From: an archaeon
GTDB taxonomy: Archaea > Asgardarchaeota > Thorarchaeia > Thorarchaeales > Thorarchaeaceae
Assembly (NCBI GenBank): GCA_024276825.1
Contig: JAJRWI010000071.1
Span: 1-54,734 of the forward strand
DNA length: 54,734 nucleotides
Reading direction: 5' to 3'
Positions 27,823 through 46,627 of the stretch are shown piece by piece (positions within the stretch are counted from its first letter, which is position 1; the number at the start of each line of letters is the position of its first letter). The notes below the pieces were generated by a model. The model was not told where the DNA came from and searched no databases. It worked only from the letters and a program-made list of their open reading frames with translations. Made by a program: the position numbers and the translations under genes.

Positions 27823-28166
27823 AGTACCAACTCGGTCTGGAACAATCGAATAATAGTTCTCTATTTTAGGCTTGTGTGTTTAGACGGGTCTAATTGAACC
27901 AAGATAATTTCTTGCAAAATGCCTCTAAAATCTGCAATTTAGCGGTTGTACATAAATGCGTAGAGCTTGAACAAAGTTGATCACTCATCAAATAAAGAAC
28001 TAATTAAAGGTCTGCAATCATGTGAGTTTATCAGATGTCTTGTAAGACTCACTTATGAGAAGTGCTCAGTGTCATTTTCTGGGCAACAAGACTCAAACAT
28101 TCAAGACGGTCCAATTAGAAATGAACGGCATCATTCGCACTCTTGAAAGGCATACACTTCTCAATT

Positions 28167-28679
28167 CTAGGATGTTCTCATCCGCAAATAGAGTCGCTTC
28201 TTACATGCTAAGGGTCCTGCGTGAAGAATCTCCATGCCAACGGGTTCATCTATGATTCCTTCAAGCATACCACAGAGATATCCATTTGTGAGGTAGCAGA
28301 TTGGTCCACCTTGCTCCAGGCCATGTTCTGCAACAGCAGTTCTAATTGGACATTCTCTGATTATCACATCATATGAGGGCTGTCCATATTCATCTATGTA
28401 GGAATAAGTATCAGTGTCTTTGTGAATGCGTAGCTCAATAGACCAGACATCTTCATAGGCTTTATTCAGTTCATGGATTGCCTGAAGTAAATTGTTTGTC
28501 TTGGGCATGTCTTCAGCAAGGATACGGCCTTCTTCAACGCCAATATTGAAAATGATTCCTTTTGCTGAAGGACCCAGCAAATGCTCGATTCCCTTGTTAA
28601 TAGTAGTTAGTAGAGCTAGATATTGCTCCATCTTTCGCTTTTCTCGGTCTGTTGAATGAAGCATAGTCTTTGAGAACAA
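28167..28679 (-). CDS. V4R-domain protein
   Basis: FNIGVEEG, ECPIR, PICYLTNGYLCGML, distal Cys. Confidence 0.72.
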   Translation of the reverse strand: MFSKTMLHSTDREKRKMEQYLALLTTINKGIEHLLGPSAKGIIFNIGVEEGRILAEDMPKTNNLLQAIHELNKAYEDVWSIELRIHKDTDTYSYIDEYGQPSYDVIIRECPIRTAVAEHGLEQGGPICYLTNGYLCGMLEGIIDEPVGMEILHAGPLACKKRLYLRMRTS

Positions 28680-28840
28680 ATCAACAATATAATCAATTCT
28701 ATTGTGCCAAATTCAGTAAAAAGCACTACTTTGAATAAAATAGCGCTGGTTGAGGCTATTAATTTCGTTAGAAGCACATTGTATTTTAGGGGCATATACG
28801 TGAATTGTTATTATCAATCTGCGCGAGTGTGGCTTAGAAA

Positions 28841-29851
28841 ATGGCGAAAAAGATCTATGATACAATAATAATTGGCGGGGGACCCGCAGGCTGCTCTGCG
28901 GCACTTCACCTTGCATATCAGAAAAGAGATGTGCTTGTTCTTGATCGTGGAACATCGCCAATGCATTTTCACACGAACACAATTATGAACTTCGCTGGAG
29001 GATCAATGTATAATGAGGGACGAGCACTTCTTCGTCAGTTGAGTACAAACGCCAAAGCTGCAGGTGCCAAATTTCGAGCAGCCAATGTGACCAAGGTATT
29101 AGGCTCTTATCCTGAATTCATAATTCAAACCGAACCCAGTTATCGCACAAAAGACAAGTCAGTATATCGAGCAAGGACAATAATCTTTGCAACAGGAACT
29201 GCAAGAAAGCATCCGAGGGTTAATGGTAAATGGCGGTTATGGCTTCCAGTTGCCAATGTTGGCAATGGGGCATTTTATTGCCCTGATTGTGAGGCACCAC
29301 TCTGCCGTGGGAAGAGCGTATTGGTTATCAACACGGGTACCGTAGGCAGTGCTCTTCACATTGCTAATGCAGTCAGCAGGTTCACCAAGAAGATACACAT
29401 TCTAATGACCGAAGACGCCTACATCCCTATTGAAGAACAAGATCTTTCAAGACTTGACAATTCACCATTTTCATGGACGAGGGGAAAAATTAAGTCAATC
29501 TATTTTGGATTGCCAGGCAAAGTACAATCCGTTGAGCTCGAGTCTGGTAAGCGACTGAGAGCCAATGTGTTCTTTGTAGCATTTGTTGCAGAGCCTCGCT
29601 CAGAACTCGCTCAAATGATTGGCGTAGAGGTCGATGAACGCGGAAATATTATCACAGACAAGCGTGGAAAGACCAATGTTGAGGGTGTCTGGGCGGCCGG
29701 TGATGTGAGACCAATTACTCAACAGATTGCAATGGCTATTGGAACTGGAAACTATGCAGCATTGATGATCAACCAATTTCTTGGCAACAAGTATGAGGAG
29801 AAGGGTGAATTCGATCACCCTGAGATGCGAGAGATTCCATTCATGGAATAA
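28841..29851 (+). CDS. thioredoxin reductase-like FAD oxidoreductase
   Basis: GGGPAG, FATG, YCPDCE, GVWAAGD, QIAMAIGTG. The NAD(P)H-binding motif is atypical (NTGTVG). Confidence 0.82.
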   Translation: MAKKIYDTIIIGGGPAGCSAALHLAYQKRDVLVLDRGTSPMHFHTNTIMNFAGGSMYNEGRALLRQLSTNAKAAGAKFRAANVTKVLGSYPEFIIQTEPSYRTKDKSVYRARTIIFATGTARKHPRVNGKWRLWLPVANVGNGAFYCPDCEAPLCRGKSVLVINTGTVGSALHIANAVSRFTKKIHILMTEDAYIPIEEQDLSRLDNSPFSWTRGKIKSIYFGLPGKVQSVELESGKRLRANVFFVAFVAEPRSELAQMIGVEVDERGNIITDKRGKTNVEGVWAAGDVRPITQQIAMAIGTGNYAALMINQFLGNKYEEKGEFDHPEMREIPFME

Positions 29852-29885
29852 TACATTGCCACACATCAATTATGGATAAGATCGC

Positions 29886-29917
29886 CTAATCAAGACAGGT
29901 CTTTCCAGATTTTAACC
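29886..29917 (-). pseudogene. displaced original 3' end of iorB (GLKSGKTCLD*)
   Basis: Joins in frame to iorB at the GGTT core when the element is removed and the segment re-inverted. Confidence 0.65.
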
Positions 29918-30101
29918 GTTCTTGTAAATTGGACATTCTTGGACATCTCAGTCCCGTCCGCCCAGGAACGGCACTGGGCACATTTCAGACTTTGATCTCT
30001 GATGAGACTATTTAGACCCCTCTCAATCTTGCTGTATATCATTAGATGTTCTTTTGATTGGTGTCCAACTCTGTCCTAGCTCTATGCATCTACGCGCAAC
30101 C
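29914..30101 (+). mobile_element. ~185 bp non-autonomous insertion element, copy 1
   Basis: Reverse complement of 46219-46407 with 3 substitutions and 1 indel. Bounded by AACC direct repeats; has subterminal GGACA-repeat inverted motifs. Confidence 0.88.
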
Positions 30102-30936
30102 CACAAGCATTTTGATATGGACAAAGATTGGCTATATAGCGATGATAACAGCTTTGGTTGGCTTTTTTGTGGCTCTTGAGAGGATACTCCCATACGAGAC
30201 GCGCAATGTTTTTGTCTATCTTTGTATTTTATCAATAATTGTCACCATTTTCATTCCATTCGAATTGATGACTTATATAGCACTTTTTGCAAGTGGCCTT
30301 ACTTTTGTTATTCTATTGCTGTTTTTCATGCATTACTTTCGAATTACATCTAGCGAGATAAAGTCAGCAATGCGTTTAATTCTTGTGGGATTCGTTATTG
30401 GTTTTATTGCGTACATTGGAAGAAGTGATCTCATCTATTCCTCACTTGGGCCTGAATTCTAAACAATTGCCGCTTTACTCCTAGTTGTTGGACTACTCAT
30501 CCTCGGAACTGCTGCATTCGGTGGACCTGCACTTGACGAACTTGACTGGGACAATCAGTTGTTAGAGCTCTATGTTATTCATAACAATGGTTTATTGCTT
30601 TATTATCACGCATTTGTGCATACTGTTAATTTGGATGAGCATCTAACAGCTGCAGGAATTGCGGGCATTCAGTCTCTCCTTCAAGAAATTATTCAATCAC
30701 CTAGTGGACTAAGCTCATTGTCTATTGGCGAGATCAATATTATGTTCGCTCATGGTGAATGCTTCACTGGAGTGTTAATCACAAAACGGGCCTATCGTGT
30801 ACTTTTGGCTAAAATTAAGGACTTTGTTGAACTATTTCAAATTGTGCTCGGTCCCGACATTTAAGATGTAGTTGCATCTGTAAAAGAACTCACAGGCACT
30901 GAAGAACTAGTAGATTTAATTTTCACAACTGAATAA
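30102..30936 (+). pseudogene. 3' part of a split 7TM-longin gene with two premature TAA stops
   Basis: One frame runs through TAA 30460-62 and TAA 30862-64 to TAA 30934-36. TM helices are followed by a longin-like domain (DEHLTAAGIAGIQSLLQE). The N-terminus is at 46404-46627(-). Confidence 0.85.
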
Positions 30937-45623: not shown

Positions 45624-46238
45624 ATGATGACGAAAACATACAACATCATTTTTTGCGGAGTTGGCGGACAAGGTCTGATGCTGCTATCTGCAATTCTGAG
45701 TAAAGCGGCAATCAATGCTGGGCTGAATGTTATCACTGGTGAACAGCACGGTCTCTCACAAAGGCAAGGTTCAATCTATGTTCACTTTAGAATTGGTGAT
45801 GTTATCTCGCCACTGATCCCATATGGAACTGCTGACATGATGATTGCAATGGAAGCCACTGAAACTTTACGATACATCGAATATCTAAAGGACGATGGCG
45901 TAATAATCATGAGCAATCGGATAATGCATTCTGTCATTGAAACTGAGCAGGTCGCTCTTGATAAGACAGGTGCTACAAAATATCTCACTGTTGATGATAT
46001 TGTTGTAAAACTGAATGAGGTCACCAGACGTGTTATCCTTCTTGATTCTTTGGAACTCGCCAATAAGGCAGGCAACCCACTAACTGAAAACTCCGTTCTC
46101 ATTGGTGCTGCCCTTGCATCTGAGGACTTTCCAATTCCAGAGGATGCTATCAAGAACGCCATTCGTGAATTGGTCCCAAAGAAGACAATAGATGCAAATC
46201 TAGAAGCATTCAGACTTGGGTTGCGCGTAGATGCATAG
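45624..46238 (+). CDS. iorB: indolepyruvate:ferredoxin oxidoreductase beta subunit (last residues supplied by the inserted element)
   Basis: GVGGQG, EQHGLSQRQGS, NSVLIGA, NLEAFRLG. The terminal RVDA* is encoded within element copy 2. Confidence 0.93.
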   Translation: MMTKTYNIIFCGVGGQGLMLLSAILSKAAINAGLNVITGEQHGLSQRQGSIYVHFRIGDVISPLIPYGTADMMIAMEATETLRYIEYLKDDGVIIMSNRIMHSVIETEQVALDKTGATKYLTVDDIVVKLNEVTRRVILLDSLELANKAGNPLTENSVLIGAALASEDFPIPEDAIKNAIRELVPKKTIDANLEAFRLGLRVDA

Positions 46239-46407
46239 AGCTAGGACAGAGTTGGAGACCAATCAAAAGAACATCTAATGATATACAGCAAGATTGAGAG
46301 GGGTCTAAATAGTCTCATCAGAGATCAAAGTCTGAAACGTGCCCAGTGCTGTTCCTGGGCGGACGGGACTGAGATGTCCAAGAATGTCCAATTTACAATG
46401 AACGGTT
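46219..46407 (-). mobile_element. ~185 bp non-autonomous insertion element, copy 2 (inverted)
   Basis: Near-identical reverse complement of 29914-30101; bounded by GGTT (AACC on the minus strand) at both ends. Confidence 0.88.
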
Positions 46408-46627
46408 CAGTGAAATAGAAATCAGCCATGATAAATGAGAACGAATTCATCGCCATGCCAAACATGAACACAGCCCATGCAAGTCTGAAATCCACAATTT
46501 TTCTTATAGAGCTTCGAAACCATTGACCGATGAAGAGTGCGACAAACAGGAGTGAATACAAAATCACTCCAGAATCCAGGATCAGGATTATATCACTAGT
46601 CAGACTTGGCGTGTCTAGAATTGGCAT
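46404..46627 (-). pseudogene. 5' fragment (~75 codons) of the split 7TM-longin gene
   Basis: Two TM helices ending ...ADFYFTEP at the element core; continues in frame with TSILIWTK at 30103. Confidence 0.82.

Follow-up and report, generated by a model that had tools for sequence, protein, structure and literature searches.

A multicopy miniature element in a Thorarchaeota genome, very probably a gene-less derivative of an IS607-family transposon

Introduction

Elements of the IS607 family have no inverted terminal repeats and do not duplicate their target (Chen et al., PMC6188088). A GG dinucleotide is present at their termini and in the target, (G)GG being preferred, and their ends carry imperfect subterminal inverted repeats together with short, helically phased direct-repeat motifs that are bound by TnpA (PMC6188088). 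In an IS607-type element from Clostridium, the GG core is strict and the 5'-TGGG-3' target is also the TAM of TnpB (Zedaveinyte et al., PMC10690162). The omega-RNA scaffold of that element ends in ..UCGG, and the C at position -3 protects the element from self-cleavage. The same study demonstrated experimentally precise donor joints, circular intermediates and the mobilization by TnpA, in trans, of mini-elements devoid of genes (PMC10690162). In Asgard archaea, TnpB loci associated with aCas1 have been reported (Cas1H-Asgard-1 and Cas1H-Asgard-2), and aCas1 was proposed as their transposase (Altae-Tran et al. 2023, PMC10691335).

The short Thorarchaeota repeat described here shares a series of features with IS607, IS1535 and ISC1926 (PMC6188088) and with the Clostridium botulinum IStron (PMC10690162). 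These are the lack of terminal inverted repeats and of target duplication, GG at the junctions and in the target, a preference for (T)GGG, an unequally spaced subterminal inverted repeat, direct repeats about 10 bp apart and a right end in ..CGG. The likeness extends to position -3, with a G beside the left end versus a C inside the right end, and, in the wider Thorarchaeota family, to a TnpA composed of a MerR-type HTH and a serine recombinase domain and to a TnpB gene whose 3' end overlaps the right end. Since each of these sequence-level points matches published IS607 elements, we file the repeat as a non-autonomous member of the IS607 family. What sets it apart from the described elements is that it is a naturally gene-less derivative, 184-186 nt long, which an Asgard archaeon harbors in about 50 copies, and that its GGACA motif and end sequences are its own.

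Non-autonomous derivatives of IS200/IS605 elements, such as the tnpA-less IStrons of C. difficile (PMC10690162), are likewise short, gene-less remnants associated with TnpB in which the right end still holds the guide-RNA scaffold. Transposition of these derivatives involves single strands, hairpins at the ends and a Y1 transposase, and their insertion sites lie 3' of a TA-rich tetra- or pentanucleotide, whereas the Thorarchaeota element has the ends of a serine-recombinase transposon and a G-rich target. Our literature search found no paper describing natural IS607-derived miniature elements in archaea. As a newly found instance of a familiar class of selfish DNA, the repeat is well supported and ordinary.

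Results and Discussion

Copies in the window and in the genome

The window, i.e. the whole stretch of 54,734 nucleotides that was analysed, contains the following copies. Ends are named in the conventional tnpA-to-tnpB orientation, which, from the gene order of a sister element on contig C81 (see below), is the reverse of the strand used in the preliminary description. For copy A this is the minus strand, with the left end at 30101 and the right end at 29916.

Copy A, 29916..30101, minus strand: miniature element, very probably IS607-derived, made of a 182-nt body plus a GG core for each junction; intergenic
Copy B, 46219..46405, plus strand: left-end core at 46219-46220 (TGGG at 46217-46220), right-end core at 46404-46405
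Copy C, 27944..28128, plus strand in conventional orientation: intergenic; profile E 2.3e-23, model positions 1-187

Copies A and B are inverted relative to each other and 98% identical over 182 nt, which suggests that they moved fairly recently. The preliminary description had already recognized the second copy on the opposite strand (46217-46407), and the flanks diverge just outside AACC...AACCCA. Copy C is old and diverged (about 65-75% identical). Copies A and C bracket positions 28129-29915 in inverted orientation.

Each copy had been placed within a host gene, which does not hold for copy A. Copy B lies inside the overlapping 3' ends of two convergent ORFs, 45624-46238 on the plus strand and 46325-46627 on the minus strand, and alters both C-termini. 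Its excision in silico changes the tail of the plus-strand ORF from ..EAFRLGLRVDA to ..EAFRLGFSEIEISHDK and shortens the minus-strand ORF, about 25 residues of which come from the element. Annotation of the family, with its roughly 50 copies, should thus improve gene calls in Thorarchaeota MAGs, as exemplified by the two C-termini rewritten by copy B.

We searched the 2.94-Mb assembly (82 contigs) for further copies, as the preliminary description had proposed. Blastn with the 188-base element gave 57 matches. A profile built from the copies gave 62, among them about 45 near-full ones and 29 that extend from end to end. The repeat is thus far beyond chance, with about 50 copies that make up roughly 0.3% of the genome. 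Copy length stays at about 181-189 nt even at 63-75% identity, and the copies fall into several young sets (four copies each, about 90-99% identical) and many old singletons. An ORF of at least 150 aa spans 2 of the 29 reconstructed empty sites, compared with 75% of random positions: the copies avoid genes, which is selection against gene disruption.

A two-nucleotide GG core and a (T)GGG target

The ends of copy A comprise the following features.

Left-end core GG, 30100..30101, minus strand: preceded on the minus strand by TG (30102-30103), giving TGGG, a target/TAM-like motif
Left-end subterminal repeats, 30060..30078, minus strand: two GGACA 10 nt apart, kept in 35 copies; full-length tnpA genes of other Thorarchaeota genera have them upstream in the same position
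Right-end repeats, 29929..29959, minus strand: two GGACA (29931-29935 and 29941-29945, plus-strand reading), then two GTCC in opposite sense (29951-29954 and 29956-29959)
Right-end core dinucleotide, 29916..29917, minus strand: the element ends in ...AACGG on the minus strand

We tabulated 42 left and 47 right junctions in conventional orientation. At the left junction, random sequence is followed by G (36/42), G (40/42), G or A (37 and 5, respectively) and then TTGCGCGTAGAT, so that it can be summarized as n-G(36/42)-GG-TTGCGCG; position -2 is T in 17, A in 12, G in 10 and C in 3 cases. The right junction reads ..ACAATGAA, C (39/47), G (43/47), G or A (38 and 9), a pyrimidine in 47/47 and then random sequence, i.e. 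..GAAC-GG-Y(47/47). The pyrimidine that follows the right core is T in 37 and C in 10 cases, and never a purine. Only the 2-nt GG, or CC on the opposite strand, is common to left and right junctions, and no other base is duplicated. Insertion favours (T)G-GG-Y and leaves the target unduplicated; copies A and B both read TGGG, and GG is all that the two flanks have in common in each of the 29 end-to-end copies. This natural set of IS607 junctions, from a distant archaeal lineage, reproduces the experimentally defined GG core and TGGG target.

Terminal inverted repeats are absent, the termini being TTGCGCGTAGAT... at the left versus ...ACAATGAAC at the right (TTGCGCG... versus ...ATGAAC). Instead, an imperfect subterminal inverted repeat is formed by two 19-mers (29929-29947 and the reverse complement of 30060-30078) that match at 14 of 19 positions and lie 11 and 19 nt, respectively, from the cores. 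Each holds two GGACA units 10 nt apart, and all of these values agree with those first given. Across 35 copies, GGACA pairs spaced by 10-11 nt are found at both ends. The GGACA and GTCC repeats are putative binding sites of the MerR-type DNA-binding domain of TnpA.

The junction table revises the core and target of the preliminary description. The AACC that it took for the core is present at 29914-29917 and 30098-30101, but only CC is constant, other copies having TACC, TGCC, CACC or AATC, and the core is 2 nt long. On the strand used there, the AACC at one end is made of the element's own GCAA beside CC, and at the other of a target purine and a chance base beside CC. Similarly, the target given as AACCCA is CCC(A), i.e. 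(T)GGG plus a pyrimidine, as read from the 42 left and 47 right junctions. The empty sites had been reconstructed from cross-paired flanks; the true ones are ttttAACCCAcaag for copy A and actgAACCCAagtc for copy B.

A nested insertion (C33:117213-117571) provides a paralogous empty site. There, a young copy (117325-117510, minus strand) is inserted in a hairpin arm of an old copy, and removal of the young body and of one core restores the family consensus GTGCCCAG exactly. The target is CTGGGC on the strand of the young copy, that is, TGGG followed by a pyrimidine. The nested site thus confirms the 2-nt core and the absence of target duplication. Variable target duplications, which would have pointed to an ordinary DDE MITE, appear neither here nor across the junction table.

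In two genomes of the same genus, homology ends exactly at the left boundary of copy B (G001) and at its right boundary (G002). Both boundaries are thereby confirmed separately; a contiguous empty site was not found in these two genomes, which are about 70% identical and rearranged. Exact-match scans of metagenome contigs for the two reconstructed empty sites gave 0 matches. Finally, agreement between left and right GA/GG core variants within one copy is not above chance, and a mismatch of the two cores in old copies fits decay.

Relation to full-length IS607-type transposons

The family, described at first as unrecognized, is identified as IS607 by a sister element with the same ends and by full-length relatives. 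The longer copies with the same ends that the preliminary description had suggested looking for are represented by this sister, a 575-bp element that encloses the N-terminus of TnpA and the C-terminus of TnpB (G000:C81:166255-166829; L032 1425-1999, minus strand). Read in conventional orientation, it begins with GG-GTAGCGCGTAGATG.., followed by two GACA-type units and by an ATG about 70 nt in. The ORF encodes a MerR-type HTH (Pfam HTH_17, E 3e-10) and, behind it, a truncated resolvase catalytic domain of which the first part is left (YARVSS; E 1e-3). These are fused to the C-terminal 60 residues of TnpB (Cas12f1-like TNB domain, E 3e-7). The coding sequence then enters the other end, ..TGTCCAA..TGTCCAATTTACAATGAACGG. 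Judged from these ends and gene remnants, the sister is an internally deleted IS607-type element, and by the same comparison the miniature copies are that element with everything between the ends removed. The 188-base repeat is thus very probably a gene-less, MITE-like miniature derivative of a Thorarchaeota IS607-family transposon. This bears out the initial view of a non-autonomous mobile element with no transposase ORF and no true terminal inverted repeats. A similar fusion of a tnpA 5' part to a tnpB 3' part was seen in another genus (L056, about 1430-2158).

TnpA homologues were detected in 30 of the 85 genomes of the Thorarchaeota family. Many are fragments, and the intact proteins comprise about 200 aa with an HTH and a resolvase domain (E 7e-20). 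Every tnpA examined is preceded by the same layout over about 70 nt upstream of its ATG: GGGTTG.., ACAGC, two (T/A)GACA about 10 nt apart, about 25 nt, and the ATG. The right-end 65-75 nt are conserved across many genera, where they are the 3' end of genes for TnpB of 712-766 aa. The tnpB stop codon lies inside the right end and can fall within the terminal AATGAACGG, and the last ~75 nt of the miniature element align with tnpB 3' ends from four genera. At least 7 loci harbor a complete unit of 8.1-9.3 kb consisting of the left end, tnpA, a giant ORF or other cargo, tnpB and the right end, with different neighbours each time.

Full-length relatives: L069 (G005:C53), L070 (G021:C7), L116, L120, L126, L130 and L115

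No intact TnpA is encoded in the assembly, which is 98.3% complete and fragmented. A resolvase-family search of the assembly gave no match, and a TnpA profile retrieved from it only the truncated C81 copy and decayed HTH scraps. Neither the cognate TnpB nor the giant ORF was found in the assembly. It follows that the copies are orphans, except if the parent reaches the cell on another replicon or went unassembled; a multi-copy parent may have escaped assembly, given the fragmentation.

Two further observations were made in this genome. MerR-HTH fragments with in-frame stops, at G000:C47:108-275, C28:81929-82105, C36:108-269 and C4:71443-71556, are probably remnants of another IS607 lineage. 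A 549-aa TnpB-like gene (G000:C24:45302-46951; L031 340-1989) was considered as the cognate and rejected, as it has no GGACA ends and is unrelated. It lies directly downstream of the 3' end of a tRNA.

Model for mobilization

The miniature element retains about 85-90 nt from the left end of its parent, including two phased GGACA units to which the MerR-type domain of the serine recombinase TnpA would bind. From the right end it has kept about 100 nt, comprising further GGACA/GTCC sites and probably the last structured part of the TnpB omega RNA. TnpA supplied in trans would bind the repeats and pair the two ends. Strand exchange at the GG of each junction would then release a double-stranded circle and leave a scarless donor site, and precise excision is what is expected of an IS607-type TnpA. 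Integration of the circle would take place at a further GG, with (T)GGG plus a pyrimidine as the favoured site, and would duplicate no target sequence. An RNA transcribed from the right end into the flank could in addition let a cognate TnpB cut the emptied sites. The earlier proposal that the element is moved at the DNA level, by a recombinase exchanging strands at a short core, is very probably correct.

A covarying hairpin and a possible right-end RNA

The right part of copy A holds two further features.

Hairpin GCCCAG/CTGGGC, 29960..29979, minus strand: covaries; its homologue in tnpB is the last stem-loop of the 3' end
TATA-like box TCTAAATA, 30009..30016, minus strand: about 100 nt upstream of the right end; similar motif in 17/35 copies

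Two internal hairpins had been noted, and both stems are present in the sequence (29960-29965/29974-29979 and 29985-29989/29998-30002). The second one, TCAGA/TCTGA, is not kept in other subfamilies. The GCCCAG/CTGGGC hairpin, in contrast, covaries. Covariation analysis, proposed at the outset, revealed compensatory changes in 3 of 6 pairs among 35 non-coding copies: pair 157/175 is CG in 19, UA in 11 and UG in 4 copies, pair 160/172 is AU in 30 and UA in 4, and pair 161/171 is GC in 19 and CG in 7. None of 500 shuffles reached the observed score, and slid controls scored far lower. The same stem is found in tnpB 3' ends of other genera, where the 3' arm tracks changes of the 5' arm via a glycine wobble position. 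An enclosing helix, nGGAG...CTCCn, also covaries in relatives across genera; in the copies of this genome it is not recognizable in the same register. Comparison of wobble pairs between strands gave 16 GU versus 9 AC, which does not clearly favour either strand.

Folding of the whole alignment with RNAalifold yielded almost no consensus structure (-1 kcal/mol), with only the GCCCAG/CTGGGC hairpin standing, and the left end has no supported hairpin. An Rfam scan of positions 29800-30250 returned only a chance snoRNA match (E 9.4) and no matching family. No known step of serine recombination requires a hairpin of this type. From its homology and covariation, the hairpin is probably the tail of an omega-RNA scaffold, and the TATA-like box is a possible internal promoter for a right-end RNA.

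Short non-coding elements of other Thorarchaeota genera (L209, L210, L213, L214, L216-L219 and L221-L223) have a TATA-like box 124-135 nt upstream of the right end and three apparent helices (e.g. GAGGTC/GACCTC, nGGAG/CTCCn and CCCAG/CTGGG) with many compensatory changes. In sequence they look like a self-promoted omega-RNA-type gene.

These features raise the question of whether the copies are primarily stand-alone omega-RNA genes, transcribed from the internal TATA box into the flank for a TnpB acting in trans in homing or regulation, their spread being a by-product. The covariation of the right-end structure in non-coding copies speaks for this, as do the TATA-like box, which 17 of 35 copies carry at ~100 nt from the right end and the elements of other genera at 124-135 nt, and the terminal ..ACGG, since IS607 omega-RNA scaffolds end likewise (PMC10690162). 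However, the cognate TnpB is absent from the assembly, only the last ~75 nt of the tnpB 3' region are kept, and the outer helix is not evident here. Moreover, conservation is just as strong at the left end, where the TnpA sites lie, as at the right, a pattern that points to selection for transposition. We thus regard this explanation as unlikely. A related proposal appears equally doubtful: each miniature copy would act as a guide-RNA gene with its own promoter and take its right flank as guide, and TnpB from the 8.5-kb Cas1-like/TnpB parent could re-install excised copies, perhaps steered to the ~50 sites. If true, an Asgard archaeon would harbor a gene-less element that homes by means of a guide RNA. 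The preferred reading remains a miniature transposon that keeps both ends of its IS607-type parent.

Other candidate mobilizing enzymes

The preliminary description had named three candidate families. Among them, IS607 with a GG core is upheld by the gene remnants of the C81 sister and by the junctions, and IS110 is not, as its sole copy sits inside an element. Nothing in the searches made, which covered resolvase, TnpB, IS110 and Y1 genes, pointed to the third candidate, a tyrosine recombinase. A mobilizer of the IS110/IS1111 type, i.e. a DEDD recombinase with a bridge/seek RNA, or a single-strand element of the IS200/IS605 type with a Y1 enzyme, would equally account for the short core shared by the junctions and for the lack of terminal inverted repeats and of target duplication, and one IS110 gene is indeed present in the genome. 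However, this sole IS110 (C81:173767-174150) lies within a copy and is not flanked by the element ends, the internal remnants in the sister element are those of a serine recombinase and TnpB, and the genome has no Y1_Tnp match, the left end being devoid of a hairpin. Mobilization by either enzyme is therefore very improbable.

The IS110 insertion (G000:C81:172800-174510, with a 460-aa frame) is located between the two left-end GGACA units (..AGACAAA|AGTTGGACA..). A second copy of the miniature element (G000:C36:16072-16582) carries at the identical site a 321-bp 5' fragment of the same IS110, 94% identical. Since IS110 is inserted in copies of the element at one site, it is a parasite of the element and not its driver.

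An ordinary MITE of a DDE transposase, with terminal inverted repeats and a fixed-length target duplication, would also be small, multicopy, mostly intergenic and endowed with subterminal inverted motifs, but is hardly credible, given the unrelated termini, flanks that share only GG in 29/29 end-to-end copies and a C33 nested insertion that duplicates nothing beyond the core.

Link to Asgard Cas1-like/TnpB loci

The full-length relatives resemble the published Cas1H-Asgard loci, as they are 8.1-9.3 kb long and encode an oversized TnpB (712-766 aa) beside a giant ORF (1239-1874 aa). The giant ORF is on the strand opposite to tnpA, has no Pfam match and contains a PD-(D/E)xK-like motif, ..VDL..LEIKTKTG. 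Its likeness to Cas1 gave no signal with Pfam, PDB sequences, a PDB profile or hhalign against canonical Thorarchaeota Cas1. When a model of its N-terminal domain (pLDDT 68) was submitted to Foldseek, the top 18 matches were all Cas1 (best E 0.035, TM 0.31-0.35), and in this model the giant ORF may weakly resemble Cas1.

In contrast to the proposal of aCas1 as the transposase, an IS607 TnpA is indicated here by the ends, by the GG core and by the neighbouring HTH-resolvase gene. Through the element ends, the published Asgard Cas1-like/TnpB loci would be linked to an IS607 serine recombinase as the mobilizing enzyme in place of Cas1, which is testable. The cargo differs in L115, where it consists of 1432, 337 and 245 aa.
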